From contig CAZUFC010000079.1 in NCBI GenBank assembly GCA_964619725.1, forward strand, positions 1-40,503: a stretch of 40,503 bases of DNA, in the 5' to 3' direction. Position numbers and translations under genes: made by a program. Within the stretch, counting starts at the first letter, position 1. Every line of letters starts with the position of its first letter. The notes below the pieces were generated by a model. It was not told the origin of the DNA. It saw nothing but the letters and a program-made list of their open reading frames with translations, and ran no database searches. Below, in pieces: positions 10,317 to 29,992 of this stretch. This DNA comes from an uncultured bacterium. GTDB taxonomy: Bacteria > CSSED10-310 > CAZUFC01.

Positions 10317-13300
10317 CTAACCGGCTTTTTTTTCCAGGCCTTCCAGTCTGTAAAGCAGTTGCGCTTTGACTTTCAGATACCTTTTTCGCAACTCTATTCT
10401 TCTTTCATCCGATAAGTATTTATCCATATACCGGGAGGGTACGTTTCCAGCCAGCTCTCTCACTATATCAACGGCTTTTTGATAGTTGCGCGCCGAAAGA
10501 ACCAGCATGCCGGCCTGGTGGTATACTTTACCTGCCTCCAGATGAATCTGCCATAGTGTTTCCGGGTCGTTCGCCGCAAGTTCAGCAGATTTTCGCAGTA
10601 GTCCCATCGCTTTTTTAGGATCGGTCAGTTTAGCCTCTAATAAATACAGTTGAGCATCAAACAAAGATGAACTTTGAGATTTCAGGACGGATTTTGCCTT
10701 TTCCAGCAATTGTTCGCTTCGTTTTAACCGTTTATTTTCTATATTCCAGAAAGCATAACTGATATACAGATTGCCGATGTTGAGAGCTGCATGAAGCTTT
10801 GAATAGATATCCTCTGCTTCTTTGAAGCTTTTTTCGGCTTCAATGAAATTTCCTCTTCTTCCTGCAATCATGGTCAGAATGTGGTATCCCCAGGCTGTTT
10901 GACTCTCCAGGTTTTTATTGCGCGCTATTTCCAGTGCAGACCTGGCGGAACGTTCGGCGGAATCGAGTTTGCCGATCAGATAATGATAAAACGCCAGGTT
11001 CAATCTGGTTCTTATCTGCTGGGAATCGCCGTGCGAACTGGAAATTTCCAGACTTTCTCTCCAGAATCGACTGCAATCTTTGTAATTTCCTTTTCTGAGA
11101 TGTATCGAACCAAGACTGTCCAGCGAGCCCGTCAAAATATAGGAATTACCGATCCTCCGTGCGAGGGCGTAAGCTTCCTGATAATATTTTAGCGCTCTTT
11201 CCAGACGATTGTTTGACATATGAATATGTCCGGTATTGTGCAGACACATGGCGATTCCGTTCTGATGACCGCATTTGCGGTGATGCTTTAAACCCTCAAG
11301 ATAATACTCCAGCGCTTTTCCTGTTTCTCCCTCAATATAGTGCATATTGCCGAGGTTCAGGAACGTTCCGCCAAGGTGCATGACGTCGTTAATTTTCTTG
11401 CGAATTTCAAGACTCGCATTAAACTGCTCAATTGCCTCGCTTCTTTTTCCGAGAAACTGAAAGGACATTCCCAATATATTATATAAAGATGCCCTGGTTT
11501 CATCACTCTTTTCCCTTTCGAGAATATTCAGTCCCTCCTGGCAGGCATTGACGGCCTCTTCGAATCGACCCTGTTTGTTAAGGACGACCGCAAGTCTGTC
11601 CAATATAATGGCCTTCTCTTGAATGATCTCATTTTTACACAATGATAAAGCCTGCCTGTACGCGTTTTCGCTCTCCCTGAATGACCCCAATTTTTCATAT
11701 ACGTCGCCTGAATGCTTGTAAATAGACACTTCCGGCAATTCATGACTGTTCTCCGCGCCTATCTTCTCCAGTTCCAGACATAAAGCCAATGCGTCACTGT
11801 ACTTGCCCCCGACGGATAATGTCTCGATTAATTTCAGCATTATTTCTGCCTTGAGCTTCCTCGATTCCAAAGGCATCAACAGCAGAGTCTTGTAAAATTC
11901 TTCGGCCGAGGAATTGTCAAAATTTTCCCTGGCGTTATCAGCCGCCGTCAGTCCGTAATGAAGAGCTTTATCGAAATTTGATGAGCTGAGATAATGCCGG
12001 GCTGTGTTCTGCAGATATTTTTTATTCGCTCTCAAGTACCTTTTCTCAAAGATTTTCGCTGCTTCAAGATGACAAATTTCCCTGAATTCCGCGTCACATG
12101 ATCCATACACGTAACGCCTGGTGTAAGGATGATCAAAACATAATCCTTCGGAGCGCTTCCGCAATAGTTCCTTGTTGAGCAGCTCCGAAAGATGCCTATC
12201 CTCTTTAATTCCTACAGCAGCGGCATATTCTTTGAAAATTTCCATATCGACGGTTTCCGCAAAAATGGAAACGGCCTGCAATATCCTGAGCTCAGAAAAA
12301 CGCAATTTCTTCAGTCTCATTTCCAGGGCCGATTCCATCGACTCAGGAGCATCAACCGTTATTCCTGCCTGCTCATCAACCTTCCATCCTTCGGCTGTTC
12401 GAGCCAGCACATGTAAATCGATCAAAGCTCGCAACCAAACCTCAATATAGAGCGGATTCCCCCGGGTTTCCTTTTCCAGATTCGAGAATATGGGATATTG
12501 AGAACTTTGCAGTCCGAGCATCTTGAATATAAAATTTTTCAGCTCTTCAGACTCCAGCGGTTTCAGGTTTATTTCACTGCAATGTTTTATTTTTCTGAAA
12601 CGTGATATCCAACTCCCCCCATTTTCATAATCGAGGTCATTCTCCTCCCCGGTAAAAATGAAAACAATCCCGGCATCCCGTAAATTCAGCGCTAAATATT
12701 CTAAAAGAGGCAACTCTTCGGGAGATGCGCTATGCATATCATCCAGACAGATGACAAGTGATTTTTGTCCGGAAAATTCATCCAAAAAGGCTCGCAGCGT
12801 CTCGAAAATTTTTAGTTTTTCCTCTTTAGCAGCAAAATTCGCCGATGCTTCAATTCCATATTTCGCCTTCAAGTCAGGGATTAGTTTAACCAGGTCTTTC
12901 ACGGGACTGTCTTTTCTTTTGAGAAGGGATTCCGCCTCTTTTTTCATGACGATTCGTCGCAGAATATCTTTGAAGCCGTCCAAATCCGAATGCCTGTCCT
13001 CCTTATATTCTCCTGACAAAAACAGCACGCCGTCCATTTTGGCCCTGTATTGAAGTTCATTGATGAAACGGGTTTTGCCGATTCCGATTTCCCCTGTAAT
13101 TGCAAACAAGTTTGTCTCCGGTACCGATTCTTCAGTATTCAGTCCAAAACTGTTTTTTATCGACTCGAGTATGAAATTCAGTTCATCCCGTCTTCCGATA
13201 TAAGGAGACTGCCCCAGTTGTCGCTGAGCCGATTCCGTTTCCATGATAAAAGTCGTGGAACTGACTTTGTTTAACTTTGCTGCAGCCTGTAAAGCGCCGG

Positions 13301-14033
13301 CTATTCTTTTGTCAGGGTCTTTTTCGAGAAGTCCTGCCAATATGCCGCGGTATTCCCCGAAGTCATCCCAGCTTATATTCTCTTTGATCCTGCCGTCTGG
13401 AGTTCTCTCAGGCAGATGCTCTTTTATCGTTTGAAATATGGTAACTCCCAATGAAAACAGGTCTGCTTTCTCATCCGGTCGGCCGCCGGCCAGAACTTCC
13501 GGAGCTGAATAGGCCGGCGTGCCGCTGAAATCGCTTGTCCCTCTTTTCGATATTTCGCTCATCAGACCGAGATCGGTGAGTTTAATTTTTATTTCGCCTT
13601 CGACCTCAGCGGACAATATATTCGAAGGTTTAAGGTCGCAATGCACATAATTTTTACTGTGAATGTAATCCAAAACCTGTAAGACCTGCATAACGGCCGG
13701 TAATATTTCCTCAAAACTTCTGCCCCTGCCGTATTCAAACAGATCGTTGCCTTTTACCAGTTCCATCACGAAAAAAGGTTCTTCATGATCGGAGATGTCG
13801 AAATCATATACTTTAACAAGATTCGGATGACTCAGCTTCATCATGTTGCGGTATTCTTTACGTAAATTGTCCAGCAATCCGGGATCATGAATCCTGAGAG
13901 TCTTTAGAGCGTATTCATTGCTTTCCAAAAGGTCTTCGACATGATAGACGCGTCCCATTCCTCCTTCGCCTAGAAGGCGGATTATTCGATAGCGGCCTGC
14001 TATTTCGCTTTTTTGCTTATTCTGTTTGATGAT
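10317..14033 (-). CDS. Ser/Thr protein kinase - P-loop (STAND-like) ATPase - TPR protein; start uncertain (ORF track 13958; probable ATC start near 14033)
   Basis: 'HCDLKPSN', 'DLG', 'GTPAYSAPE'; Walker A 'GEIGIGKT', Walker B 'VICLDDMH'; TPRs. The frame continues upstream of 13958 through 'IAGRYRIIRLLGEGG'. Confidence 0.88.
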   Translation of the reverse strand: MIKQNKQKSEIAGRYRIIRLLGEGGMGRVYHVEDLLESNEYALKTLRIHDPGLLDNLRKEYRNMMKLSHPNLVKVYDFDISDHEEPFFVMELVKGNDLFEYGRGRSFEEILPAVMQVLQVLDYIHSKNYVHCDLKPSNILSAEVEGEIKIKLTDLGLMSEISKRGTSDFSGTPAYSAPEVLAGGRPDEKADLFSLGVTIFQTIKEHLPERTPDGRIKENISWDDFGEYRGILAGLLEKDPDKRIAGALQAAAKLNKVSSTTFIMETESAQRQLGQSPYIGRRDELNFILESIKNSFGLNTEESVPETNLFAITGEIGIGKTRFINELQYRAKMDGVLFLSGEYKEDRHSDLDGFKDILRRIVMKKEAESLLKRKDSPVKDLVKLIPDLKAKYGIEASANFAAKEEKLKIFETLRAFLDEFSGQKSLVICLDDMHSASPEELPLLEYLALNLRDAGIVFIFTGEENDLDYENGGSWISRFRKIKHCSEINLKPLESEELKNFIFKMLGLQSSQYPIFSNLEKETRGNPLYIEVWLRALIDLHVLARTAEGWKVDEQAGITVDAPESMESALEMRLKKLRFSELRILQAVSIFAETVDMEIFKEYAAAVGIKEDRHLSELLNKELLRKRSEGLCFDHPYTRRYVYGSCDAEFREICHLEAAKIFEKRYLRANKKYLQNTARHYLSSSNFDKALHYGLTAADNARENFDNSSAEEFYKTLLLMPLESRKLKAEIMLKLIETLSVGGKYSDALALCLELEKIGAENSHELPEVSIYKHSGDVYEKLGSFRESENAYRQALSLCKNEIIQEKAIILDRLAVVLNKQGRFEEAVNACQEGLNILEREKSDETRASLYNILGMSFQFLGKRSEAIEQFNASLEIRKKINDVMHLGGTFLNLGNMHYIEGETGKALEYYLEGLKHHRKCGHQNGIAMCLHNTGHIHMSNNRLERALKYYQEAYALARRIGNSYILTGSLDSLGSIHLRKGNYKDCSRFWRESLEISSSHGDSQQIRTRLNLAFYHYLIGKLDSAERSARSALEIARNKNLESQTAWGYHILTMIAGRRGNFIEAEKSFKEAEDIYSKLHAALNIGNLYISYAFWNIENKRLKRSEQLLEKAKSVLKSQSSSLFDAQLYLLEAKLTDPKKAMGLLRKSAELAANDPETLWQIHLEAGKVYHQAGMLVLSARNYQKAVDIVRELAGNVPSRYMDKYLSDERRIELRKRYLKVKAQLLYRLEGLEKKAG

Positions 14034-14082
14034 TGAGAACCCTGAGAACCCACAAGCCGGGTAGCTATCCGCGGCAAGCGTT

Positions 14083-14110
14083 ATTATAAGAAATTTGCTG
14101 TAAAATGCAA
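14083..14110 (-). promoter_or_regulatory. sigma70-type promoter for the kinase gene
   Basis: TTGCAT-16 nt-TATAAT on the minus strand. Confidence 0.55.
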
Positions 14111-14114
14111 ATTT

Positions 14115-15173
14115 CTATTCCTCCTGCTGGGCCATGCGATACACGACCTGGAGGATTTCCGCTACGGCTTCATATAATTCTTCGGGAATCTCCGAGCCTA
14201 TCTCCATCTTGTTAAGGGCCTGAGCCAACGAAATATTACGGAAAACAGGAATATCATTTTCTTTTGCAATCGCTTTGATCTTTTCTGCCCACAATCTTTG
14301 TCCTTTTGCCGTGATTTGCGGGGCATTCATTTTGTCGGCATCATATTTTATCGCAACTGCGATTTCGTCCGGGTTGGTTATTACCGCATCAGCGTTTTTA
14401 ACTTCATTGACCATATTGTTCATCGCCAGCTCCTGATGCATGGCTTTTCTCTTGCTCTTATAGGTGGGGTCGCCCTCTTCCTGTTTATATTCTCTTTTGA
14501 CTTCGTCTTTTGTCATTCTCATATCTTTTTTGTACTGCCATTTCTGATAGTAAAAATCTGCGCCTGCCACCGCTATGAAAATGAAACCGATTCGCATGAC
14601 CAGCTTTACGATCAGGTGTCCCGTCAAAGCTATGGTCTGATCGAGAGAGGAGGTCACGGTCAGGTAAATGTCTCTGAATGCGCCCTTGAAGATCAGGTAA
14701 GCCATAAGGAAAGCGAGTGAAAGCTTAATGGAAGATTTAAGGAATTCGATGAAGCTTTTAAGCGAGAATATATTTTTTACGCCTTTTATGGGATTGAGTT
14801 TGTCGAGGGAGGGTTTGAGAGGTTCCAGGGCGAATAAGGAGCCGACCTGGAGGTAGCTTCCGACCAGGGCTATGATGAATACTCCGGCCAGGAGCGGAGC
14901 CAGGATTTTCACCTGTGCGCTCAAGGCGCCTGAGAGAATGCTGAATATGACCGTTTCATCAATGTTTCTGGCTGTTGATTCAAAAATGAAATTCATATAC
15001 TCCATGAGGACTTTGCCTGAGTTTCCGGCAGTAACGGCGACGATGGCGAAGGCCGATATGAACAAAGCGGCAGTGGTCATGTCTTTGCTTTTGGCTATCT
15101 GCCCTTTCCGCCTGGCCTCCCTCATCTTTTTCGGGGTTGCTTCTTCAGTTTTTTCGCCGGCGCTTTCGGCCAT
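14115..15173 (-). CDS. sctU: T3SS export apparatus switch protein SctU (FlhB/YscU family)
   Basis: 'EKTEEATPKKMREARRKGQIAKS', TM region, 'RMTKDEVKREYKQEEGDP', 'IPEELYEAVAEIL'. Confidence 0.95.
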   Translation of the reverse strand: MAESAGEKTEEATPKKMREARRKGQIAKSKDMTTAALFISAFAIVAVTAGNSGKVLMEYMNFIFESTARNIDETVIFSILSGALSAQVKILAPLLAGVFIIALVGSYLQVGSLFALEPLKPSLDKLNPIKGVKNIFSLKSFIEFLKSSIKLSLAFLMAYLIFKGAFRDIYLTVTSSLDQTIALTGHLIVKLVMRIGFIFIAVAGADFYYQKWQYKKDMRMTKDEVKREYKQEEGDPTYKSKRKAMHQELAMNNMVNEVKNADAVITNPDEIAVAIKYDADKMNAPQITAKGQRLWAEKIKAIAKENDIPVFRNISLAQALNKMEIGSEIPEELYEAVAEILQVVYRMAQQEE

Positions 15174-15187
15174 ATCTTGTAATTCAC

Positions 15188-16006
15188 CTACCTTTTAAGA
15201 AGCTCCAAGACAGTATCCAGGTGATAGATCGACTCCCACAGCTTCACTTTAATCTGTGCGACCAGCAATGAAAGAATAAGAAGAACCATGAGTGTGCCGA
15301 CCATCATTTTAATGGGTAAGCTGAGCATAAAAACGTTGATTTGGGGGGCGACGCGATTGGCTATGCCCATGGTCAGGTCTGTAAAAAAAATGGCGAGGAA
15401 GGCGGGAGCGAACAACTGGATGGCGACGGAAAAAAGGGTTCCGGCATATTTTGCAATCCATTCAATAAAAGGAGATAAACCGGGTTTGAAGACGGGAAAG
15501 GATGTAATGGGAATAATCTGGAAACTCGTCATAAGAGCTTTCAAAAAGTAAATATGCCCGTTCATCAGGAGAAAAAGGACTATGGTGAGCTGCAGGTTCA
15601 GTTGCCCGAAAAGGGATACCTGGGCTTTCATCTGCGGAGCGTGCAGACTGGCTGTGCCCATGCCCCTGTGCGTATCCAGAACCCGGCCTGCGGCTTCTAC
15701 TATGTAAAAAAACATAGCCGCTATAAATCCCATCACCAGGCCCAGGAAAACCTCTTTACCCAGCAACGAGACCATAGGCAGGACTTCCAGAGGCGGCGGA
15801 CTCTCCAACGCTGAACTGACAGGGAAATAAAGAACGATGACCAGAGCGACGCCCGTCCCTATTTTTACTCTTGCGGGGACCATCTGCCCGCCGAGGAAAG
15901 GCGCCAGGAAGACGGCGGGAATCAGGCGGGCGAAGATCAGGCCGCTGATGGCCAGAGTGACGTAGAAATCAATATTTATGCCTAAATCTTTGAGAATTTC
16001 GTTCAC
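15188..16006 (-). CDS. sctT: T3SS export gate SctT (FliR/YscT family)
   Basis: 'APFLGGQMVPARVK', 'NRVAPQINVFMLSLPIK'; position in R-S-T-U block. Confidence 0.93.
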   Translation of the reverse strand: MNEILKDLGINIDFYVTLAISGLIFARLIPAVFLAPFLGGQMVPARVKIGTGVALVIVLYFPVSSALESPPPLEVLPMVSLLGKEVFLGLVMGFIAAMFFYIVEAAGRVLDTHRGMGTASLHAPQMKAQVSLFGQLNLQLTIVLFLLMNGHIYFLKALMTSFQIIPITSFPVFKPGLSPFIEWIAKYAGTLFSVAIQLFAPAFLAIFFTDLTMGIANRVAPQINVFMLSLPIKMMVGTLMVLLILSLLVAQIKVKLWESIYHLDTVLELLKR

Positions 16007-16045
16007 GGCGGTCGATGTAATGCAAGATTGATTAAATTGAAGCCG

Positions 16046-16312
16046 TTATCGAATCATGTTCGGAAAACTTGTGAGAAGGTTGTGAGCGAATCTCACTATA
16101 AGACCTGTCGTCCAGGAAGCCAGAGCGACTATCAGGCCATATACGACGATTAATTTGGGCACGAAGCTGAGCGTCTGTTCCTGTATCTGCGTAGTGGCCT
16201 GGAACAAACTTACGGCGAGACCCACGATAAGACTGCCCAGGACCGGCGGACCGGATAACATAAGCACCAGTATCAGTGCTTCTTTTGTAATGCGTAGAAC
16301 GAATTCTTCCAT
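16046..16312 (-). CDS. sctS: T3SS export gate SctS (FliQ/YscS family)
   Basis: 'VGLAVSLFQATTQIQEQTLSFVPKL'. Confidence 0.95.
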   Translation of the reverse strand: MEEFVLRITKEALILVLMLSGPPVLGSLIVGLAVSLFQATTQIQEQTLSFVPKLIVVYGLIVALASWTTGLIVRFAHNLLTSFPNMIR

Positions 16313-16357
16313 TTTTTCACCTCATTCCGCCAACGGCAGCAGAGCATCGGCCTGATT

Positions 16358-17125
16358 CTACAGGTAACCCATGATCAGCCCCTTTGTGATGACGTACCAG
16401 CCGTCGACGAGAACGAATAGCAGCAATTTGAACGGCAATGATATCATGGTGGGCGAAAGCATGAACATGCCCATGGACATCAGAACATTGGCGACGACCA
16501 TATCCACGACCAGGAAGGGTACAAATATGATGAACCCTATCTGAAAAGCTTCTTTCAACTCGCTGATCACAAACGCCGGAATAAGCACAGTAGCATCTCT
16601 TTCCTTCAGGTTCTCCCGGTCTTCCTGTTTGCGCATTTTTCTGCCCATGGACAAAAAAAGTCTTCTTTCGTTGGAATGCGAATGCTTGTAAAGAAAATCG
16701 AAAATAGGCGTTTTACCCTTTTTCACGGCTTCACCCAGCAAATCCAGGCTGGCTTCTGAAAGCAGCGGTTTACCCGTCCGTTGCTGTACCGTTTCCTGTG
16801 TTTCCCGGTATACTTCCAGTCCTACCGGAACCATAATATGAATAGTCAGAATAACGGCCAATCCTATGACTACCTGGTTGGGCGGCACCTGCTGAGTCCC
16901 CAGAGCGCTGCGGATAATCGACAACACCACCGCTATTTTGACGAAGGAAGTTATCATGATGAGCACGAACGGAACCAGGGCCAATGCGCCCAAAGCAGCC
17001 ATAAGAAGCAGGGGACGCTGACTGACCTGTACAGGATATGCCGCTGCTTCAGTCGTCTCGATCAAAAGGAACCACTCGCACACCAGGACCGCCAAAACTA
17101 CAGGAAAACGGAGCCTTCTATTCAT
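16358..17125 (-). CDS. sctR: T3SS export gate SctR (FliP/YscR family); start placed at MNRRLRF overlapping the upstream stop
   Basis: 'TSFVKIAVVLSIIRSALGTQQVPPN', 'LIPAFVISELKEAFQIGF', 'ISLPFKLLLFVLVDGW'. Confidence 0.95.
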   Translation of the reverse strand: MNRRLRFPVVLAVLVCEWFLLIETTEAAAYPVQVSQRPLLLMAALGALALVPFVLIMITSFVKIAVVLSIIRSALGTQQVPPNQVVIGLAVILTIHIMVPVGLEVYRETQETVQQRTGKPLLSEASLDLLGEAVKKGKTPIFDFLYKHSHSNERRLFLSMGRKMRKQEDRENLKERDATVLIPAFVISELKEAFQIGFIIFVPFLVVDMVVANVLMSMGMFMLSPTMISLPFKLLLFVLVDGWYVITKGLIMGYL

Positions 17126-17600
17126 TCTCTTTTTTCCTCTGCTCGCTTTTAAGTTTGTTGAAAATACGGCTGAATCCCGAACCTGGTTCATCTAAAGAGG
17201 TGACTGACGCTCCCGGCGAATCCTCTATGTTCTCCTCTTCCATCTCCCAGCGGCTTAATACGCTGATATTCTGTTCTGATGTTCCGATCAGCATCTCCTC
17301 TTCGCCTATCCTGATGATGTGAAGGTTCTTCCTGGGCTCCAGACGTTTCGATTCCATTATCCTTATACGCCCGAACCTGAATTGTCCCGCTCCGTATATT
17401 TTCGGCAGCACGATTTTCAAGATGATATAAATCAGAAGTATGACTATGAACAACGCTATAATCGTGGTAATGATCTGCGACAGGAACCCGTTGTCGTCAA
17501 AGTTCGTTCCAAACCCTGAAGCATCTGCAGGAGTAAAAGTCGGGACGGCTGTTTTCGCCGATACATTGAAAAACATCTGTAAAAAATTCACAATGAACAT
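17118..17600 (-). CDS. fliO: FliO-like export-gate assembly protein
   Basis: TM helix followed by 'IRIMESKRLEPRKNLHIIRIGEEEMLIGTSEQNISVL'; lies directly before the fliP/sctR homologue. Confidence 0.8.
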   Translation of the reverse strand: MFIVNFLQMFFNVSAKTAVPTFTPADASGFGTNFDDNGFLSQIITTIIALFIVILLIYIILKIVLPKIYGAGQFRFGRIRIMESKRLEPRKNLHIIRIGEEEMLIGTSEQNISVLSRWEMEEENIEDSPGASVTSLDEPGSGFSRIFNKLKSEQRKKENE

Positions 17601-17606
17601 CCCGGA

Positions 17607-19214
17607 TCAACCTGAACCTAATTTAATGATCTTTACGCCGATTTTGCCCTGGAGGTCCACCAGCTTGCCCTTTGCGATTACCTTGTCGTCTGCGGTAAGG
17701 TCCACCGGCTCGATCGGACTCTTCTCAAGACTCATCGTCTCACCCTCCTTCAATCTTATAATATCCCGCAAGGGCATCTGAATGCGTCCCAATTCTACTA
17801 CAACCGGAACCGTTACATTATCCGCAACGAACCGCGCCGTCTCCGTCATCTTTAACGCACTTTCCCCCGTTACTCTTTCCTTCTTTTTTTCCTCTATTTC
17901 TTCGCTCATGCTCCTCTCTCCTTTGGAGAACCTCTCTTTAAGGGTCACATTTATCTCTCCCGAATTTACAGCAGCATCAATCGAATACCCCCCGTTCGAC
18001 CGGGCTCCGCAATATAATGTCGCCTCACCGCTTAATCCATCTTCTCCGAAAAACATCTTCGTGTTTTCAACCGCAATGATGTTGTCTCTTTCAAGCGAGG
18101 ATATCTCCACGAGAGATAAAGGAGTATATCCCATATCGCATATAAGCGGAATCCTTATCTCATCGATCGATCGAAAGCGCGACATTAAGAATTCATTCTC
18201 CTTTGCCGTATCGCTGTAACCCGTCTCGCCGGGGATCAAATCATATTTTTCAAGCAGAAGGTCAGGTAAAAAAAGCTTCACGAACCCGGACGCCCTGCCG
18301 AGATTGACCGTGTAATCAGACTCTATGTAGGGCACAGAAAAATCAACCTCCTTGTCCAGCTCGCTTCTGCTTCGGATCATCTTCTCCAGCCGGGGATGTA
18401 CCGGCGGATTCGATCCGAATTTCTCCGTCAGTAAATTGAGGATTTTTAATACTAAAAATTGCACTGCGCCTTCTTCCATGGCCGTGAAAGCACGAAATAC
18501 CCTGACGTCGCCGCTGCCTCCCAGCAGATGATCATACAGCGCAAACCCCAGCATCAGGTCGATTTCTATAAAACACTTATGCTCAACCGGATGAAGATTG
18601 AATACCAATACGCTGCAGGGTTCCGATATCGTTTCTCTTATCCCCTTATACAACTTCTGTTTTCGACGGGTCAGCCTGATTCCTATCGATTCCGTCTTTT
18701 TCTCTTCAACCTCAATCGTCAACGATAACTTCGTATTCGCCAGGGTTATCTCATCTCCGTTCGATATTTCCTGGTCCTCCCCCGGACGCAAGATTCTGCC
18801 GTTTAAATATGTATTGTTGACGGAATTTAAATCAGACAGAAAAAATTTATCCGCTTTTCTGTATACCTTGGCGTGCTTACCCGAAATATAACCGTCAGGT
18901 ATTCTGAAATCAGTATCTTTGTGTCTGCCTAAAATAATCTCTTCGCTGTCGAATTTCTTCTCGATTATTTCACGTATCCGACCCGGTTTCTTTAATACCC
19001 CGCTTAAGCCTATCCTGTATTTTTTTTCCACTGCAGGAGGAAAAATCCCCTGCAACATCTCTTTTATCTCAGAGTAACATTCTCCGGGAAATATTGAATC
19101 CGGCAGATACCGAAAAACCTTGCCTGTCAGCTCAGCTTCTGCAGCATCTACTTTTTCCAGAGGTTTCAGTATAAAGTGTGCAGCCTCTTTCGTTTTCTTT
19201 TTCCGTTCATCCAT
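17607..19214 (-). CDS. sctQ: C-ring/sorting platform protein SctQ (FliM-FliN-like) with inserted FHA domain
   Basis: FHA at about aa 65-168; FliM-middle-like 'DHLLGGSG...RAFTAMEE'; two SPOA-like segments, the last 'VVVELGRIQMPL...IAKGKLVDLQGKIGVKI'. Confidence 0.88.
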   Translation of the reverse strand: MDERKKKTKEAAHFILKPLEKVDAAEAELTGKVFRYLPDSIFPGECYSEIKEMLQGIFPPAVEKKYRIGLSGVLKKPGRIREIIEKKFDSEEIILGRHKDTDFRIPDGYISGKHAKVYRKADKFFLSDLNSVNNTYLNGRILRPGEDQEISNGDEITLANTKLSLTIEVEEKKTESIGIRLTRRKQKLYKGIRETISEPCSVLVFNLHPVEHKCFIEIDLMLGFALYDHLLGGSGDVRVFRAFTAMEEGAVQFLVLKILNLLTEKFGSNPPVHPRLEKMIRSRSELDKEVDFSVPYIESDYTVNLGRASGFVKLFLPDLLLEKYDLIPGETGYSDTAKENEFLMSRFRSIDEIRIPLICDMGYTPLSLVEISSLERDNIIAVENTKMFFGEDGLSGEATLYCGARSNGGYSIDAAVNSGEINVTLKERFSKGERSMSEEIEEKKKERVTGESALKMTETARFVADNVTVPVVVELGRIQMPLRDIIRLKEGETMSLEKSPIEPVDLTADDKVIAKGKLVDLQGKIGVKIIKLGSG

Positions 19215-19283
19215 ATCGCTTGTCGCTTCCTCGTTTGTCCGGCGAGAATGCTGAATCAGGACAATAAATTATTAACTCATCGT

Positions 19284-20204
19284 CTACGCTTCGTAATCCG
19301 TGCTGCTGATCTTCCCTATCCTGGGCTTCGACGGCGGGATTGGCGATAAAGGCTCCTCTGTCGATTCAGCGCCCTCATCCGCTATTCCCGATATGTCGAT
19401 GATCTCCGTTTCACTCTCTTGCGAACCGCCCTGACCCGAAGCATCAGAACCAACGGCAACGCTGAGCTGCGCCAAATCGAGACCTTTGCCGTCAAGCGCT
19501 TTCACCAGTTCTGCTGCTTTGGTCTGTATGATTTCCTTAACCGCATCCGATTCGGTGATGAAATGAACATTTATCTCTCCGTTTTTATCCGCGCTGACGT
19601 TCAACTTCAATCCGCCTAGAAACTCCGAGTTAAACTGGAATTGCATCTCGGTCTGACCCGCTTTATTCACTCCTACCCTCACCTGATCAACGATACTGGT
19701 CAATATCTCATCAGGAATGATCTTCGATGCAGAAACATTTGAAATATCCATGGGTTGCGGACCCGTTTGAGGGCTCTGCTGCACAGCATCAGGAACCCCC
19801 TGGAATTTGACTTCCCGGTCCAACTTTTTCTTTAAATTATCGACCGGCGGTCCTTCGCTTCCCTTTAATTTCAAATCTTTCATACTCTTTTTATCCGGGA
19901 ATAACTTGCCCGGTCCCCTCTTCTGATCCGGCGGCTCAAATTTCTTCGGCATCTTCTTGGGACGTTTGGAGTCCGGAAAATAGGAAAAAGCTTCTTCCGG
20001 CTTCTCCCCCCTCCGTTCGCCTTCTTTCTCCTTTACCGGCTCTTTGGTTGACTTCGATTGAGACGAACCGGACTTGTCCGGTTCCTCCTTTTTTTTGCCG
20101 AAAATTTCAGAAAACGATCTTTCAGCCGAAGAAGCGGAATGATCCTTTTTTTCCATTGAATCGCCGATTTTCTTTGATCCTCCGGCGACCGGTTTTATAT
20201 CCAT
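19284..20204 (-). CDS. sctP: Length-control ruler SctP/FliK-like protein
   Basis: Disordered N-terminus; FliK-C-like 'EMQFQFNSEFLGGLKLNVS...INVHF..ESDAVKEII....ELVKAL..KGL'; O-P-Q synteny. Confidence 0.78.
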   Translation of the reverse strand: MDIKPVAGGSKKIGDSMEKKDHSASSAERSFSEIFGKKKEEPDKSGSSQSKSTKEPVKEKEGERRGEKPEEAFSYFPDSKRPKKMPKKFEPPDQKRGPGKLFPDKKSMKDLKLKGSEGPPVDNLKKKLDREVKFQGVPDAVQQSPQTGPQPMDISNVSASKIIPDEILTSIVDQVRVGVNKAGQTEMQFQFNSEFLGGLKLNVSADKNGEINVHFITESDAVKEIIQTKAAELVKALDGKGLDLAQLSVAVGSDASGQGGSQESETEIIDISGIADEGAESTEEPLSPIPPSKPRIGKISSTDYEA

Positions 20205-20251
20205 TGCTTTCTCCTTTTTAAGATAGCTGGTAAACCGTCACGGAACTCCAT

Positions 20252-20749
20252 TCAAGTATCCTTTTCCTTAAATGAATAAAGCACATTGCCTATTTCATCC
20301 AGGGTTTTCTGTTCCTCCCGCGCCTGTTCCTTTTTTATTTTACTGATCCATTTCTCCCGATGCATCTCTATCGCTTTGACGGCTTTCACCGCTTCTACCA
20401 GCAAACCTTTTGCTTCAGCAACATCATCCTTCGCTTTATTAATCGCGTCGTCCTGCTCTCTGATCTCCTGAATCTTATCGCTTTCATCGTCTCGTAATCG
20501 CTCCAGGTAACGATCATACTGCTTCAGTTTCTGAAGCGTGAGCTTTCCTGAACCAGGATTCGCCTTCTCTTTTTTGGCTCTTTTCTGTTCTTCGATTATC
20601 TGATTGAGTTCCTGCTTTAATTGATCCTTGTATTCAATTTGCTTCTGTAATTCGTCTTCTTTTTTTTTCAGATATTCCAGCGCTTCATCGCGTTTTCTTT
20701 CGCGCATCTCCAAAACAGGCTGCAATTTATAAGGCGGTAATTTAGCCAT
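20252..20749 (-). CDS. sctO: Stalk protein SctO/FliJ-like
   Basis: Coiled coil with 'YKLQPVLEMRE' and 'REEQKTLDEIG'; directly after the ATPase; SD GGAG before ATG at 20749. Confidence 0.8.
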   Translation of the reverse strand: MAKLPPYKLQPVLEMRERKRDEALEYLKKKEDELQKQIEYKDQLKQELNQIIEEQKRAKKEKANPGSGKLTLQKLKQYDRYLERLRDDESDKIQEIREQDDAINKAKDDVAEAKGLLVEAVKAVKAIEMHREKWISKIKKEQAREEQKTLDEIGNVLYSFKEKDT

Positions 20750-20835
20750 GCGCCTTCTCCCGGATTGAAGCATCCTTTTCAATGCAGCGTGAAATAACCG
20801 AAGATGTGATCATGACGAATTCTCTTTCCTTGAGC

Positions 20836-22185
20836 CTAATTTTTAAACAGGTCGTTCAACTTGATGACGGTATCGTCAAAAGTAATTTGTTCGAAAACCT
20901 CCTGTTTCAGAAAAGAATTAACCGCGTCGATCTTTTCAATGGCATAGTCGATATTCTTGTCCGACCCTTTCTTGTATGCGCCGATATTAATTAAATCTCT
21001 CTCTTTTTCATAAACAGCCAGGACTTCTCTTAATTTTCTGGCGGCCCGGCTGTGTTCGTCATTGACAATTTCCGACATAACGCGGCTGACGCTTTCCGAA
21101 ACGTCGATAGCGGGATAATGATTTCTGGCGGCTAAATTTCGCGACAAAATGATATGCCCGTCAAGAATACCTCTCACTTCATCGGCTACCGGCTCGTTCA
21201 TGTCGTCTCCCGCCACGAGTACGGTATAAAAAGCGGTTATGGAGCCTTTATCCGAATTGCCCGATCTTTCAAGCAGGCGGGGCAGTTCAGAAAACACGGA
21301 TGGAGTATATCCGGCTCTGGCCGGGGGTTCGCCGACGGCCAGGCCCACTTCTCTCTGGGCACGGGCGAATCTCGTAACGGAATCCATCATGAGCATAACT
21401 TTTTTGCCTGCATCCCTGAAATATTCGGCGATGGAAGTAGCGACATGAGCGGCTTTCAATCTGACAAGAGCGGGTTGATCTGACGTGGCGACGACTACGA
21501 CAGACTTTTTCATGCCTTCTTCGCCGAGATTGCCTTCCAGAAAATCGCGAACTTCCCGTCCCCTTTCTCCGATCAGCGCGATAACGTTAATTTCGGCTTC
21601 CGTGTTTCTGGCGATCATTCCCATAATGGTGCTCTTGCCCACGCCTGCAGCCGCAAAAAATCCTATTCTTTGACCTTCTCCGACGGTCAGCGTGCCGTCT
21701 ATCGCACGAATGCCTACAGCCAGCGTGTTTTTTATCCGGCGCCTTTTCAGAGGATCGGGAGGCGGACTGTGCACAGGATACTCCACCGTATCCTGCAGCT
21801 CTCCCTTCTCTTCAACGTCGAGCGGCTCTCCCAATCCGTCCAGGACCCTTCCCAGCAGACTCTCTCCTACTTTTATAGTCATTGAATTGCCCGTCGGGAG
21901 AATCTCGCTGTCCGTACCTATGCCCTCCAATTCGCCCAGAGGCATCAACATGACGTGATCGCCTTTGAATCCGATGACTTCGGCTTTCAGCGGCTTTCCC
22001 GCATTGTGCGACTGTATCAGACATAGTTCGCCGACCCTTACTCCGGGAACAGCCGCTTTAATCACCAGTCCCACAATTTCCACGACGCGGCCCCGCGCTT
22101 TCAACGGACTTATGTCGTCTATAATCCTTAAATACCTGCTTAATTCAATTTTGTTCCCGGATTGAGCCACTGCCTCTCTCCTCAA
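20836..22185 (-). CDS. sctN: T3SS ATPase SctN (FliI/YscN family); start may be GTG at 22170
   Basis: Walker A 'AAAGVGKST', 'LIGERGREV', '[10 protein letters not shown]', '[10 protein letters not shown]'. Confidence 0.97.
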
Positions 22186-22952
22186 ACGCTTGTGTTCTTC
22201 ACGGCCAACAATTTCCTGGCCAAAAATATGACGATGGCCCAGGGGACCAAAAAGAGAACTACGCCGCCGATCAGCAGCATCCGCAAGGGTTTTTTTGAAT
22301 TCTGAGTCAACGTCAGAGGCCCGAAATGAAAAAGTTTTTCCGATTCTCTTTTTTCTATGATTTTTTCCGTTGAAATTATAATAACGTTGGAAGTCGTCAG
22401 GTTCTCTACAGCCCTGGACACCAGGCTCTTTATCTCTTCATCGCTATAAGGCTTTTCTCCTCCCGGCTCAGGCCTGTATTTGATCAAAACCGATGCCGTA
22501 GGGTCCGGTATGGTTTCATCCGGCAAATAGGCATCCTTGTTGGGCATCACAACATGAACGCGAACATCCACCACACCGTCAATTCTTTCTATCGTTTCAG
22601 CTATTTCACCCTGATAAGCCTGAATGAGTTTCGCTTGTTCCTCCAGTTGGGTGGGCATAAGACCGGATTGCTGAAAAACGTCTTTGAATCCCGTCCCCTT
22701 GGGTCGCGGCAGGTCCATATCCAGTAATACTTTTCTCGCCTTTACCGCATCCGCTTCATCGATAAGTATCGTCCAGGTACGGTTTCTGTCATCACCCGCT
22801 GCTGCCTTTTCGCCTTTTATGCCGTACTGGTCCAGTATCACCAGAATCTCATTCGCTTCCCGCTCCTCAAGATCGTGCAATAATTCTATCTTGCAACCCG
22901 TCAGGAATAAAACCGCCGTCGCCAGAAAAATAAGCGCCGCCCGTCGCCTCAT
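22182..22952 (-). CDS. sctJ: Inner-membrane ring lipoprotein SctJ (YscJ/PrgK family)
   Basis: Lipobox 'FLTGC', '[10 protein letters not shown]', '[12 protein letters not shown]', 'PTASVLIKY', C-terminal TM; SD AAGGAG before ATG 22952. Confidence 0.92.
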
Positions 22953-23125
22953 CCTAGCTCCTTTCATAAATAAACCTTTCAACTGTCTTAAATGAGGAAT
23001 AAAAATGTCGACTTTTTATCCCGCAATTACCTCTTGAATTAAACTTTTCCGTTAACTTCCCCGTCAATTCACGCATGCTCCGCAATTGATTCCCTCAGAA
23101 GAAAAGACGGATTTCTCCTGCACCG

Positions 23126-23548
23126 TCATACCTGAGTATTCATCGTCGTTTTTATGCCCGAAACAGCCTGCTCGACCACTTTGCTGGTCAATTCCAGCTC
23201 CTGAGTGAACCGATAGACGCCTGTCTGAATGACCATGAGTTCCTGGGGAGAAAATTTTTTCCCGCTCAGCGCCATGTCCATGATCTTATCCACCTTGTGC
23301 TGTCCCTCGACTATGCCGTTAAGAACATCCTTGATGGAATTGCCTCTGGAAATGGACATATCGACCTGTCCCACTTCAGTCGCCTGCATCGATTCCGTCT
23401 TTCCCATCTCAGCATTCTGATCCATCATCTGGTTCATCACCTGGTCGAACTTGCCGACTTGTTCCGATGCTTTTACGCTTTCTTCGGCCAGCTTCTTGGC
23501 TATATTGGCAGCCGTCTGGCCGGCGCCTGTAATCATTGGTCCCGCCAT
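23126..23548 (-). CDS. sctI: Inner rod SctI-like protein
   Basis: 'SPQELMVIQ...ELELTSKVVEQ...TTMNTQ' YscI-like C-terminus; directly upstream of sctJ. Confidence 0.7.
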   Translation of the reverse strand: MAGPMITGAGQTAANIAKKLAEESVKASEQVGKFDQVMNQMMDQNAEMGKTESMQATEVGQVDMSISRGNSIKDVLNGIVEGQHKVDKIMDMALSGKKFSPQELMVIQTGVYRFTQELELTSKVVEQAVSGIKTTMNTQV

Positions 23549-23589
23549 GACGATACCCTCCTTTCTGCAAAAATGCAGAGTTATTCCGG

Positions 23590-24297
23590 TTAAGTGACTT
23601 CGTCCGGCGTCTTAACGCCGAAACCCGCCAGTATTTCTTTCAATTCCATCAATATTTTCGTGTGCAGTCGCGACAGCCAGCTTTTCGACAAATTCATAAT
23701 GCGTCCGATTTCTATAAGGGTCTTATTCTCATAATAATACATGTAAATAAACCGTCGATCCTGGTCTTTCAACCTGTCCAGCATCTTCCTGATTAGTTCT
23801 CGCTTCTGTATCTTACCGTAAGCCCTCTCAGGATCGACGTCGTTCTGATCCTTCGGCTCAAGCTCGACCGCCGCATCCAGAGAAATAATGTAGATTGGAA
23901 TCAATGCGGAAATGACCTGTTCCAATTCATTCGCTTCCTCTTCAGCCCCCATGTCAGAAGGACTCTTGCCGCTTGAAACGAACTCGTTCATAAACTCATT
24001 AGCCGATTCCTCAAATTTCTGTTTGGCGTATTGATTGCGATTGAGCCAGCCGAATTCCCTTAAACCGTCGAATATGGCGCCTCTGATCCTGTAATAAGCG
24101 AACGTTTTAAAACTTATTCCCTTGGCCGGATCGAAACGTTCCGCAGCTTGAACCAGTCCGAGGTGACCATAAGCGACCAAATCTTCTTTGTCGACCCAAG
24201 GAGCGATCGTTTTGGAAATATTGGAGGCTAACTTCTGCACGTAGGTTATATTTTTCTTTATCAGAATCTCTTTTTGCGTAGCGGCGACGGATTTCAT
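23590..24297 (-). CDS. fliA: FliA/WhiG-family (sigma28) RNA polymerase sigma factor
   Basis: 'GLVQAAERFDPAKGISFKTFAYYRIRGAIFDGLR'; region 4 'TLIEIGRIMNLSKSWLSRLH'. Confidence 0.85.
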   Translation of the reverse strand: MKSVAATQKEILIKKNITYVQKLASNISKTIAPWVDKEDLVAYGHLGLVQAAERFDPAKGISFKTFAYYRIRGAIFDGLREFGWLNRNQYAKQKFEESANEFMNEFVSSGKSPSDMGAEEEANELEQVISALIPIYIISLDAAVELEPKDQNDVDPERAYGKIQKRELIRKMLDRLKDQDRRFIYMYYYENKTLIEIGRIMNLSKSWLSRLHTKILMELKEILAGFGVKTPDEVT

Positions 24298-24486
24298 GAT
24301 ATAATTTCCAACCTGAAGCCTGATAAGCAGAAAATGAAAACCATAAGTCGACCGTACTTATCCAGGAGCCTTTCGTAATATTTCAATATAACAGATTCAA
24401 GCCGACAACGGCAAATTTCATTCACCGACCGCAGCAGCCTTATGTTCATCATTGAATCTTTTAATACTTTGAATCTGCGCATTCTA

Positions 24487-27400
24487 TCAACCTCGACGTT
24501 TCTGACCGTCATTTTGATCTCTTCCGTCACTGCCGCCCTGCTCTCGAGAGCCGTCCTCGGTACTTCCCTCAGCAGGTTTTATCCTGGTTTGGGCGATCGG
24601 AATTTCCAGCTTAGCCGTCACCAAAGCTCCGAATCCTCCGGGTAAATTAATTTTTTCTTTATGATCCGGGGCCTGGGTGAAAGAACTGACGGAATGCAGA
24701 TAGGACAGGTAAATGATGTTTTCAGCAGGATTAAATCGGGCAGCCAAGATAAGCGCGGGATAGGGAATGCCGTCGAACAACATGAATCCGCCCGGCGCAA
24801 AACGTCTGACGACAGGTTCCGGCAAACTCCGTGGATAATTCTTCATATTGAAAGAAATGCCGGGCTCTTCAAATTCCCCTTCCGTCGCAAGCGCGGCCTG
24901 AAGCCGCGGCTCTGAAGCGCTTTCTGCTCCTCTCCCGAAAATAGTCAATTTTGCTCCATCCGCAACAGGAACGGTATGAACGGAATATTGTCCCGGCAGA
25001 CCGGGAGTATCCCCAGTCTTCCGATACCCCTTATCAAAATCGCTATCATTGACTTTCCTCTGCGACTTATCCCCTTCCCTGAACTTGAAATCACGTTGAT
25101 TGCTTTCCCGCACTTTGGACGCTTCGCTCTCCGAGAAATAACCTGCAGGAGCCAGGTCAGAAAAAACCGTATCGGGAGGTAACGGCATTACCGCGGGATC
25201 ATCGAAGTCCGGCGAGGCATTTGCCGCATTCATCGCCTGTGCGTCAACCGGTTTGAGCCTCCGGGTGAGGGAGTAGATGAAGTCCTTTGAAAGCTCAATC
25301 AAGCCGGCCTTATCGGCGTCAGTAACGGGATAACCCGCTTCCTGATTGATTCGAATCTTCGGGGCTTCAGTTGGCGATGTCATTGCGGGTGAAGACGATG
25401 CCGGTAAGGTACCCGCTGGAATTATCCCATATAAGCGTTCTCTCAGAGCATGCCCCCTGGGATCAAACCATACGCCCTGCTTGATCAATCCCACCGCCTG
25501 GCTGTCTTCCTGAATGTCGAGAGCCATTTTTTCGAGTGTGGCGACATCCAGCATGCCGGTTTGCTTTAATCCTTTAAAGCTTTGATATGTCATAAGGACC
25601 GTTTTGATTTCATCCGGAGACATTCCGGAAAAAATGTTCTGTATCGATTTCCTTCCGGCGAATCCAAGGACCGGTTCCGTCATGCCGCTCGCCTGATTTC
25701 CTTCGACTGATTTCGCCACGGCCCGGAACAAGACTGCGGGTAAAGCCGCATGCTGCTCAATAATCCGGGCCGCTGCGGGCGTTTTCGACAAATAACTTTT
25801 CAAATTCTGAGGATTCACAGGCAACCGGTCAATCAGATCAAACTTTTCCCTGCCCGTCAGGTCGAACAGGACATTGGAAAAAACCATCCTGCTGATGGGC
25901 GCTCTTCTTATCTTCTGAAGAATCCCGAATGTCTTCATATCCAATATTCCGTCGGAAAATTCCAATCCCAGGTCCTCCTGAACGGCAGTCACGGCGCTCG
26001 ACAACCATTCCGCCGTTCTTTTGCCTCCGTCCATTACCGAAAGACCCATACGCGCTAAAATGTCCCCCATTATTTTTTCGGAAAATTTCAGCGACCGGTC
26101 GTCATATTTTGAGAAAGGAACCTTACGGGCCAGCCCTGACTCAAATGAAAGCAGGGATGCCCCAAGCTCGTCAATCATCACTCCGTCAGGCGTATTTCTT
26201 AACAGTCCTTCTACGGCTCTCATCGTCTGCAGGTCAAGTATTCCGTGTTGCGGCATTCCGAAGGATTTTTGCACGGTTTTTAAAAATCCCTGTATGTTGA
26301 AGTCGCTGCCGGTTTTAAGGTCGACCGGAGTATCGGCTTGAACCGCGTCAATCTGTTGTGACGACAATTTTCTTATCTTCGCCGCCTGACTGAATTTATT
26401 CATGAACAGGTTAACGGTCGAATCGGCAATTTTTCCCCCGCCGCGATACATCGCTTCGATTAAACTCCTGTTCGTCTTCGCATCGCCGCCGGTCAAGAGT
26501 CCATTCAAATCGTTCAAATTCAAACCCGCATGCCTCATTTTGCCCAGTAAGGACAGGACGTCTTTGTTCAATAATGCGTCTGGTTTCAAACCGGTCAATT
26601 TCTTGAATAACCTTATACCTCGCGCGTCGCCTTCAAATCCGGACTCGATTCCCGCTTCTTTCGCAAGCAATGCTATGCGATGCCCATCGATCGGCAGAAG
26701 TTCGTCCCTTATCTCGGTCAGCTTCATTCCATGCCAGGTTCGTGAAACGGCGCCGGCGAAATCATTCAAATCAAGCGCTTTCATTATCTCCGGAGGAAAC
26801 AAAACATTTGCTTCTTTCGTTATTTGCAGGGCTTGCGCCGGCGTTCCCTTTTTTCCTATAATATGTGAAAAATCATTCAGAAAACTCTTTATCGAAACCT
26901 CATCGAAGGCGCCGTACATTCTTGAAATAAAATTTTTTCCTTCCACCGATCTTCCTAACTCGTCCCGGATGGAATCAACAAAAGCAGGAGAAAAAAATCG
27001 CTCCGGCTTCCCTGAACGTGCATCCGGCTTAAACCCGGAGAATTCGGTTGCCCTGGCTCTTTTACCGGTTCCTTCCCGTGAAACAAAACGGTTCTCTGTA
27101 TTTAACCCCCGGCCTGATGTTGCCGGTCCAGCAGCATTCTTGTCTGCGGATTTTTGCAAAACTCTGCCGGTTAATGCCTGCAAAGTTGCCCTGTTCAATC
27201 TCCCGTTCGATTCTAATCCCTCGCTTCGTTGAAATTGCCTCAGCAAAACCGACAGATCACCGTCCGTACCACCGGCTGTTCCGCCTTCCATCAGCAATTG
27301 CCCCACGAAATTTTTCAGTACGGGCCCGAAACGGGAATCTTTCACTTCGACGCCGGCATCACCTGAAATTTCCTGTTTCAAAGGATGCCTTTCCAGGATA

Positions 27401-28494: not shown

Positions 28495-28545
28495 GATGTC
28501 TTCGTCCGAAAACGTATGTTTTTTTCAGTTCAGTTCAAACCGAAA

Positions 28546-28950
28546 CTAAAGATTCTCTATACTGGAAAGCTGATTAAGGATTTTTGTTATTTTTGAGGTC
28601 ATTTCAGGGTCCTTGCCGACAAAATCTTTAATCCTGTCCTTCATTTCCGATAATCCCTTTTCATCCAGAACTTCAGGCGACAATTTTTCTCTTATTATCC
28701 TGTCCACGGCCAATTCAATGAATTTTTCCCTGCCGGTTTCATCCTGTTCCAGTTTTTTCCCGTCCATTTCCTTTTTTATCGCTTCAAGCAAAGCCGAATC
28801 CATCTTTTTAGCTTCTATTCCCTTTTTATCTTCGACCGCTCCTTTATCTTTTTCCAGGGCGAAATCTTCCGCTTTTTCCGCTTTTTTTCGTTGAATTTCC
28901 CGGATATTTTCCAGATTCCGCGGAGATTTAACCGACGGATCGATCTTCAT
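28546..28950 (-). CDS. Hypothetical T3SS-cluster protein
   Basis: 134-aa helical, charged ORF with SD GAGGTG; co-oriented inside the cluster. Confidence 0.7.
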   Translation of the reverse strand: MKIDPSVKSPRNLENIREIQRKKAEKAEDFALEKDKGAVEDKKGIEAKKMDSALLEAIKKEMDGKKLEQDETGREKFIELAVDRIIREKLSPEVLDEKGLSEMKDRIKDFVGKDPEMTSKITKILNQLSSIENL

Positions 28951-29050
28951 TTTTGCACCTCACATCATACAAAGCATACTGCCTGTTTCAGAAGTAAAAA
29001 ACCTATTATGGCACTGAGATTCGAAAAGCAATCGCTGAAATAGAATGATC

Positions 29051-29452: not shown

Positions 29453-29501
29453 GATATATACTCCCTTTATCTTGCTGTCTCAGGTCTGTCGTCCATTAAA
29501 T

Positions 29502-29933: not shown

Positions 29934-29992
29934 GATTTTCCTCCTTGAATTGATATTGAGAAAGCCCCAACGGCTTTCGACTTTCATCCCTG

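Follow-up and report, generated by a model that had tools for sequence, protein, structure and literature searches.

A predicted SctQ-type ring protein with an inserted FHA domain in a non-flagellar type III secretion cluster of an uncultured bacterium

Introduction

Control of the sorting platforms of type III secretion systems (T3SS) is attributed to host contact, chaperones and gatekeepers. Here we analyze a 40,503-nucleotide stretch of DNA from an uncultured mat bacterium (assembly GCA_964619725.1, contig CAZUFC010000079.1, positions 1 to 40,503; hereafter the window). It contains a T3SS gene cluster in which a cytoplasmic ring protein of the SctQ/FliM kind, referred to as P0001, bears an FHA domain. 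Ser/Thr kinase signalling is tied to a T3SS through FHA domains in chlamydiae, by way of the kinase PknD and of CdsD, an SctD protein with two FHA domains; there the domain is on SctD, whereas here it is on SctQ. In type VI secretion systems (T6SS), the kinase and the phosphatase are encoded in the T6SS cluster. One account of the PpkA/Fha/TssL pathway describes an FHA domain that reads phosphothreonine on a component of the secretion machine to activate secretion (PMC3953482). Fha, however, is a separate accessory protein, whereas in P0001 the putative reader lies within a core subunit, with no kinase or phosphatase conserved nearby.

P0001 also resembles the SctD proteins of injectisomes (YscD, PrgH, MxiG and PscD; PF16697) in having an FHA fold where the membrane rings meet the sorting platform. 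According to one study, the cytoplasmic FHA folds of SctD lack the Arg and Ser that bind phosphothreonine, and are thought to bind SctK in a phosphate-free manner (bioRxiv 10.1101/2020.09.22.308627). These folds are on an inner-membrane ring protein; in P0001, by contrast, the domain is on a platform protein, and both residues are kept.

As for the ring protein itself, injectisome SctQ (YscQ, SpaO, Spa33) and P0001 have in common the tandem C-terminal SPOA domains, the place of the gene between sctP and sctR, and an internal Shine-Dalgarno (SD) sequence with an ATG ahead of the last SPOA domain. P0001 differs from SctQ by a sub-cut-off score on the SctQ family TIGR02551, by a FliM-middle domain with a GGXG motif and by the FHA insertion, and an SctK gene was not recognised in its cluster. 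With flagellar FliM and FliN, as seen in the C-ring structures 8wo5 and 8umd, P0001 shares the FliM-middle fold and GGXG, and its cluster includes a FliG-middle-like gene and fliO; it differs by a sub-cut-off score on the FliM family TIGR01397, another N-terminal motif, two SPOA domains in one chain, the FHA domain, and a place outside the flagellar cluster. Lastly, among non-flagellar T3SS, the early-branching "Myxo" type (Abby and Rocha 2012, PMC3459982) resembles the present system in the lack of a secretin gene in the cluster and in flagellum-like traits; the term "FHA" is nowhere in that paper.

Results and Discussion

Domain architecture and predicted fold of P0001

Profile matches, alignments and a structural model divide the 535 residues of P0001 as follows.

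17607..19214, minus strand: FHA-bearing SctQ/FliM-like cytoplasmic ring gene, P0001, 535 aa (open reading frame and translation, Pfam, AlphaFold2 and Foldseek)
19044..19214, minus strand: N-terminal peptide, residues 1-57, with a motif common to FHA-less homologues (occupancy 0.9 over residues 8-57 in 38 FHA-less rows)
18699..19043, minus strand: FHA insertion, residues 58-172, with G96-R97, S111, H114, S131, N133 and T135 (alignment gap, Pfam, alignment with 3po8 and GarA, Foldseek)
18225..18698, minus strand: FliM-middle-like domain, residues 173-330, with LLGGSG at 230-235 (Pfam FliM over 166-322, Foldseek)
17925..18155, minus strand: first SPOA-like domain, residues about 354-430 (model strands from 354-367 to 420-429; 4yxb match; TIGR02551 match over 351-532)
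17622..17819, minus strand: second SPOA domain (FliMN_C), residues 466-531 (Pfam; whole-genome match at 17619-17819)

In Pfam, the FHA family (PF00498) matches residues 94-158 with an E-value of 1.1e-16 and 61.5 bits, relative to a cut-off of 20.7; the FliM-middle family (PF02154) matches residues 166-322 (E 6.1e-11, 43 bits, cut-off 27), and FliMN_C matches residues 466-531 (E 2.8e-19). The NCBIfam profile for SctQ, TIGR02551, scores 64.5 bits, under its cut-off of 100.8, and its match is confined to residues 351-532. That for FliM, TIGR01397, which includes the N-terminal CheY-binding segment, scores 60.3 bits, under a cut-off of 219.6, with a match that begins at profile position 64. Since both scores are below cut-off, P0001 is related to both families and is an equivalog of neither.

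The AlphaFold2 model of P0001, obtained with a 66-row alignment, has a mean predicted local distance difference test score (pLDDT) of 86.8 and a predicted template-modelling score (pTM) of 0.60. Averaged over blocks of ten residues, the pLDDT is 84-98 from residue 61 to 330 and 49-74 from residue 1 to 50; the linker preceding the last SPOA domain is also of low confidence. Foldseek matched the model to Salmonella FliM in the C ring (8wo5_B1, E 1.4e-11) and to the FliM middle domains 4fq0_A, 3soh_A and 4fhr_A, with TM-scores (TMt) of about 0.7 and root-mean-square deviations of 2.5-2.7 (4fq0_A, 0.72 and 2.5). The match to the FliM(SPOA)::FliN fusion 4yxb covers two SPOA units, and the phosphothreonine-binding FHA domains of FhaA, GarA, OdhI and DgcB are matched with TMt of 0.75-0.85 (3po8, 0.82; 6hc1_B, 0.81). 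The layout of P0001 is not that of SctD: the model consists of soluble domains throughout, no membrane segment was noticed in the sequence by eye, and what lies outside the FHA domain is FliM/SPOA, unlike SctD.

The original prediction, made from the DNA letters alone, had described an FHA domain with G96-R97, S111-x-x-H114 and N133, followed by a GGSG motif, and had placed the domain at residues 65-168, or nucleotides 18711-19022. That conversion is correct, all of the residues are present, and the region both scores and folds as an FHA domain. Judging from the profiles and the model, P0001 is almost certainly a SctQ-type ring protein of a non-flagellar T3SS with an inserted FHA domain.

The FHA domain is an insertion with a conserved binding site

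In an alignment of 66 rows (A2), 38 homologues without the FHA domain align to residues 8-57 and 173-535 of P0001, and all 38 have a gap over residues 58-172. The domain is thus literally inserted, as had been proposed. An N-terminal peptide (consensus F.x..LP, then a helix) is common to the FHA-bearing and the FHA-less rows. Because the FHA-less sisters have this same peptide, nothing was displaced; that is, the domain was added or lost between the peptide and the FliM-middle domain.

A phmmer search of solved structures with residues 59-175 has FhaA (TB39.8) of M. tuberculosis and GarA on top, with E-values of 2.5e-7 to 2e-6 (3po8, 2.5e-7), and the GR, SxxH and SxNxT positions of P0001 are aligned with those of 3po8 and GarA. 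Identity to P0001 is only 14-32% in the 28 rows of A2 that bear the domain. In these rows, G96 and H114 are conserved in 28/28, S111, S131 and N133 in 27/28, R97 in 26/28 and T135 in 25/28. Six proteins from the same phylum share 17-50% identity with the first row; of the 19 columns that are invariant among them, 10 belong to the FHA signature. Since the residues that bind phosphothreonine are kept across very divergent homologues, a phospho-dependent function would be the most economical reading of the FHA domain.

Spread and history of the architecture

A homologue search of 1.84 billion representatives returned 12,483 matches at E <= 1e-3; 609 of these reach E <= 1e-10, and 8 reach E <= 1e-30. 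Many of the best 150 matches are full-length, and in many more, about 420 aa long, the alignment starts only at residue about 195. A word-index homologue search returned P0001 itself and two weak FliM proteins. A related-locus search of genome contigs with P0001 alone gave no match, and one with the protein of a relative gave just the contig of that relative itself. Both FHA and FliMN_C are found by Pfam in 7 of 7 same-phylum candidate proteins, all of which are encoded in syntenic sctL...sctJ-sctN...sctQ-sctRST clusters. A profile search of 401 genomes (E <= 1e-25) gave full-length matches in 8 of the 13 genomes from the same phylum; of the 387 others, 2, which belong to one genus, also have them, and at least 14 genomes have the FHA-less form. 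Besides these genomes, the architecture is found in 22 further metagenomic clusters. In an alignment of 34 rows (A1), 29 rows have the FHA domain and all 34 have FliMN_C. The ESM Atlas has three clusters (131, 64 and 83 members) in which FHA is present in 100% and FliMN_C in 99-100% of the members, and in which Acidobacteriota is the commonest phylum.

The sources label the lineages that have the architecture as Schekmanbacteria, Acidobacteriota and, in one metagenome-assembled genome (MAG), Deltaproteobacteria. Relatives from a Candidatus Schekmanbacteria MAG and an Acidobacteriota MAG are named "FliM/FliN family flagellar motor switch protein", and the JGI name of one relative mentions both FliN and a pSer/pThr-binding protein. 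No published account of an FHA domain in SctQ or FliM was found in the full-text literature, a search whose coverage is short of subscription journals and supplements. Of the possibility that the architecture is already common among described SctQ proteins, one half is borne out: it is common in databases, but we found no described protein that has it. The architecture is old and conserved, present in databases under generic names, and uncharacterised in the literature searched. A misassembly or chance fusion was considered and rejected, because the architecture recurs in many independent assemblies.

In a tree of the core, that is, with the FHA columns removed and the fragment P0007 left out (65 rows), a single change separates the FHA-bearing from the FHA-less rows (SH-aLRT 93), and 0 of 500 label shuffles gave a value as low. 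Another tree was rooted with three flagellar FliM proteins as outgroup, again without P0007 and also without L015, L016, P0150, P0087 and P0065, which are the longest rows. Here, all 37 rows that lack the domain fall in a single clade (SH-aLRT 90) that lies within the FHA-bearing rows, and P0001 and P0004 branch first (88-90). This topology fits an FHA domain that was present early in the SctQ family and was then lost once, in trees whose rows were chosen by likeness to P0001, have long branches and include no injectisome SctQ.

The T3SS cluster around the gene

The gene for P0001 is placed between sctP and sctR in a cluster of T3SS genes, all on the minus strand. The gene calls from sctL to sctU (14115..31087) are based on Pfam, NCBIfam and synteny with related loci.

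31103..31660, minus strand: short FliG-middle-like protein, 185 aa (Pfam FliG_M, E 1.3e-9; TIGR00207 fliG, 98-153)
30434-31087, minus strand: sctL/fliH (Pfam, NCBIfam, synteny)
Between sctL and the PG_binding gene, minus strand: three small open reading frames and a TPR protein
24487-28494, minus strand: PG_binding protein, 1335 aa (repeated PG_binding_1 units)
23590-24297, minus strand: sigma factor (sigma-70 family)
23126-23548, minus strand: sctI-like, weak match
22182-22982, minus strand: sctJ, short lipoprotein with one C-terminal membrane segment
20836-22185, minus strand: sctN
20252-20782, minus strand: sctO (YscO-like)
19284-20204, minus strand: sctP/fliK-like
17118-17600, minus strand: fliO
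16358-17191, minus strand: sctR
16046-16312, minus strand: sctS
15188-16006, minus strand: sctT
14115-15173, minus strand: sctU

The window contains no gene for SctV or a secretin, and none was recognised for SctD. Secretin matches number 7 in the genome and all lie on other contigs. There are two FlhA/SctV genes, one in a flagellar cluster on contig C7 and the other on contig C16. The latter may be the export gate of this system, with a secreted substrate encoded beside it. The C16 gene (L020, 6177-10818) is preceded by two genes, one for a chaperone-like TPR protein and one whose 477-aa product matches DUF1521.

The FliG-like protein, which is without the C-terminal torque domain of FliG, is a candidate partner of the FliM-middle domain of P0001, which has the GGXG motif and probably binds it. 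In the predicted complexes, the pLDDT of the partner is at least 62, and the contacts agree between runs to at least 94%. The gene occupies the place of sctK in injectisome operons, before sctL. It likewise occupies the fliG place of flagellar operons, a lead on the origin of SctK. FliG-middle-like genes without the torque domain are also found in two related loci, at L040:5285-6232 and at about L045:16665-17060. The genes of these two loci are in the order fliF-G-H-I-J-K...M/N-O-P-Q-R-flhB, which is the flagellar order.

How the FHA domain may act

The explanation that accounts best for these observations, and that we consider probable overall, is that P0001 is a SctQ-type subunit of the sorting platform of a second, non-flagellar T3SS with many flagellar traits, in which the FHA domain docks by way of phosphothreonine. 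The domain would either recruit a Thr-phosphorylated partner to the platform or tie the platform to a membrane component that is phosphorylated, and assembly of the machine or loading of substrates would then depend on Ser/Thr kinase signalling, like Fha in type VI secretion. Phosphothreonine-dependent docking by the FHA domain on the platform, taken by itself, has in our estimate a slightly better than even chance. The domain architecture, the fold, the conserved binding residues, the surroundings of the gene and the spread of the architecture are shown by the data, whereas phosphothreonine binding, the partner and the effect on secretion are inferred. If this reading is true, a phosphothreonine reader in a core platform subunit, across phyla, adds to T3SS a post-translational control by kinases like that of type VI secretion. 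The gene also offers a way into a poorly known class of T3SS from uncultured bacteria that is akin to flagella. This class combines FliO with a FliG-like protein and a FliM-like SctQ, SctD, SctK and secretin are not recognisable in its cluster, and it bears on the origin of injectisomes from flagella. A much broader proposal, which taken as a whole is quite improbable, is that in an old branch of non-flagellar T3SS (Schekmanbacteria, Acidobacteriota and others) the platform reads phosphothreonine and eukaryote-like Ser/Thr kinases gate its docking to the export gate; that the FHA domain is basal and was lost once; and that the phosphate-blind FHA domain of injectisome SctD is a possible relic of the same phospho-docking interface.

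Several observations weigh against the reading we prefer. The position of Arg97 is occupied by T in P0017 and P0025 and by K in the protein of genome G177, and because the arginine is replaced in some lineages, some members may act without phosphate. Phosphate-independent contacts are also possible for FHA domains, as the SctD study states (bioRxiv 10.1101/2020.09.22.308627). The neighbourhood of the gene has no conserved phosphothreonine ligand, kinase or phosphatase: a kinase match is present in 0 of 10 related FHA-SctQ loci (tblastn, E <= 1e-4, in the fetched stretches), and a PP2C-type phosphatase domain was not seen in the scanned open reading frames of the window. SctD and SctK were not recognised in profile searches whose controls were silent or uninformative, which leaves their absence unproven: for SctD, PF16693 had no match in the genome, with its controls silent too, and TIGR02500 matched only FHA parts, on another contig. 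As regards the FliG-like partner, almost every FHA-less homologue retains the GGXG motif, in which G232 is nearly invariant in A2, but most homologues with the FHA domain have a degenerate form of it, and among these LGG remains only in P0001, P0004, P0005, P0017 and P0025. The predicted complex of the FliM-middle domain with the FliG-like protein scores 0.45, relative to 0.00 for the best control, which is weak support; and because solved FliG-FliM complexes exist, this result may reflect likeness to them.

Of the alternatives, a flagellar switch protein, that is, a FliM whose regulatory FHA domain controls rotation, is extremely improbable. The FliM-middle domain with GGXG, the FliO and FliG-like genes of the cluster and the naming of relatives as FliM/FliN family by NCBI and JGI would fit with it, but the genome has a separate, complete and true flagellar cluster on contig C7, the contig on which the rod, hook and stator genes lie. 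This cluster includes FliF, FliI, FliP-R, FlhB, FlgE, MotB and FliL, three SPOA matches besides FliM, FliN/Y-type SPOA genes, and its own FliM, which scores 116 bits on PF02154 as opposed to 45 for P0001. The N-terminus of this FliM begins MSEIISPKEMQELL, and that of P0001 is unlike it. The presence of that cluster with its own FliM argues that P0001 is not the flagellar switch. So do the low TIGR01397 score, the YscO-like, SctI-like and short SctJ proteins of the T3SS cluster, the lack of rod, hook and stator genes among the scanned window open reading frames of at least 100 aa, and the missing torque domain of the FliG-like protein. The original prediction, in which phosphothreonine input replaces the CheY input of FliM, is likewise not supported, given the flagellar FliM encoded elsewhere and the FHA-less sisters, which keep the same N-terminal peptide. 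Alternatively, the FHA domain could be a phosphate-independent adaptor, i.e., a structural dock that takes the place of the FHA-like domain of SctD and has no kinase input. This we regard as unlikely. It would agree with the failure to detect SctD, with the match of the FHA region to Yop-YscD_cpl (PF16697; 33.7 bits, cut-off 33.2), with the loss of the arginine in three members, with the lack of a conserved kinase or phosphatase in the 10 loci, and with the SctD domains, which function without phosphothreonine. However, the phosphate-free SctD domains did lose the binding residues, whereas GR, SxxH and SxNxT are kept in 25-28 of 28 rows, and unless phosphate binding is under selection it is difficult to account for a full phosphothreonine signature at about 20% identity. 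Moreover, the top matches in sequence and fold, namely FhaA, GarA, OdhI and DgcB, are true phosphothreonine binders.

Two further alternatives were considered. In one, the kinase encoded directly after sctU marks a T3SS component that the FHA domain of SctQ reads, making a closed switch like PpkA-Fha. The original prediction had named this kinase as the obvious writer.

10317..14114, minus strand: Ser/Thr kinase-AAA_16-TPR gene directly after sctU; listed open reading frame 10317-13958, 1213 aa (Pfam Pkinase over residues 2-199, which is profile positions 13-212)

The listed frame starts 156 bases past the sctU stop, on the same strand, and is open across the whole gap, where it encodes the missing strand and the Gly-rich loop GEGGMGRVY; the same window also encodes a protein with two FHA domains and a tail anchor. 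The adjacency of kinase and sctU is real and particular to this genome, and with 34 Pkinase matches spread over 9.17 Mb of genome it is unlikely to be due to chance, so that the kinase stays one candidate. Against a dedicated writer, none of the 10 related loci has a kinase match. Two loci extend several kb past sctU, and both carry other genes there: unrelated sugar and polysaccharide genes in G004, and genes for a glycosyltransferase and an FHA-GGDEF protein in G177. The closest homologue, P0004, is on two metagenome contigs of 5.4 and 5.7 kb that end before this region. In addition, Pkinase-AAA_16-TPR proteins are a large paralogous family in the genome (43 tblastn segments), and no phosphatase gene was seen among the scanned window frames. 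The first ATG, GTG or TTG of the kinase frame falls within the Gly-rich loop, and upstream only ATC or ATA are possible starts; this oddity (13958-14114) could mean that the start codon is non-canonical, that the gene is decaying or that the assembly is in error here. Also, the best sigma-70-like site of the 14.8-kb region, a consensus match only in a region with fewer such sites than its shuffles, separates sctU from the kinase. Gene conservation, then, does not bear out a kinase-FHA-phosphatase switch of the PpkA/Fha/PppA type, with the kinase adjacent in this genome only. Such a closed switch is distinctly unlikely, and, since the genome contains no fewer than 34 Pkinase matches, the neighbouring kinase is just one of the candidate writers. 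In the other alternative, the switch is self-contained: the FHA domain binds a phosphothreonine of SctQ itself, in the N-terminal peptide or a linker, or of a neighbouring subunit, and so controls oligomerisation of the ring. The FHA domains of GarA/OdhI and of Bdellovibrio DgcB, which bind their own phosphorylated tails, are the closest solved domains, and the FHA domain of P0001 adjoins the flexible N-terminal segment noted above. But no Thr outside the FHA domain is conserved in the FHA-bearing rows, where no column other than that of T135 has T in at least 40% of the rows, and we consider a self-contained switch very improbable.

A predicted internal start

17907..17924, minus strand: SD-like stretch aaaggagagaggagc with in-frame ATG (M436) (sequence motif, kept in homologous genes)

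An internal start that gives rise to SctQ-C is a known trait of YscQ, SpaO and Spa33. In P0001, 15 purine-rich, SD-like bases precede the in-frame ATG of M436 (17907-17909), which is in the linker before the last SPOA domain. An SD 5-mer with an in-frame ATG, 82-110 codons from the C-terminus, is present in 12 of 13 homologous genes, and 10 of those 12 genes have no other internal ATG with a motif of this kind; the 13 are kin and thus not independent, and L016 and L039 are outside the count. The signal persists at about 20% protein identity and is present in FHA-less members too. A separate product of 100 aa, SctQ-C (SPOA2), is therefore probably made from M436, as predicted from these motifs.

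Other genes of the window and of related loci

With 34 Pkinase and 16 FHA matches, the genome is well stocked with the signalling domains concerned, a point in favour of phosphothreonine-dependent docking. A further FHA protein is encoded in the window, on the opposite strand to the T3SS genes.

3975..5153, plus strand: tail-anchored two-FHA protein, 392 aa, with an acidic linker and a single C-terminal transmembrane segment (Pfam FHA in two stretches, hydrophobic C-terminus)

This protein is a possible membrane partner, or minimal anchor, of the platform. A tail-anchored FHA protein of the same build is encoded just before the sigma gene at L040:2307-3233, in the unrelated genome G177. The FHA-GGDEF protein of that genome (L040:15856-16812, about 1.8 kb after sctU in the cluster) has the build of Bdellovibrio DgcB.

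Within the T3SS cluster, a 161-aa protein (29502-29987, minus strand) has a Gly/Ala-rich middle, a needle- or rod-like C-terminus and no family match, and it adjoins the TPR protein in 8 of 8 same-phylum clusters compared. The 1335-aa PG_binding protein has no paralogue in the genome by tblastn. The cluster is adjoined, on the opposite strand, by a gene for a 584-aa protein with collagen triple-helix repeats (31886-33640, plus strand), and a gene for a 700-aa subtilase (Peptidase_S8; 7852-9954, minus strand) lies downstream of the kinase, on the same strand.

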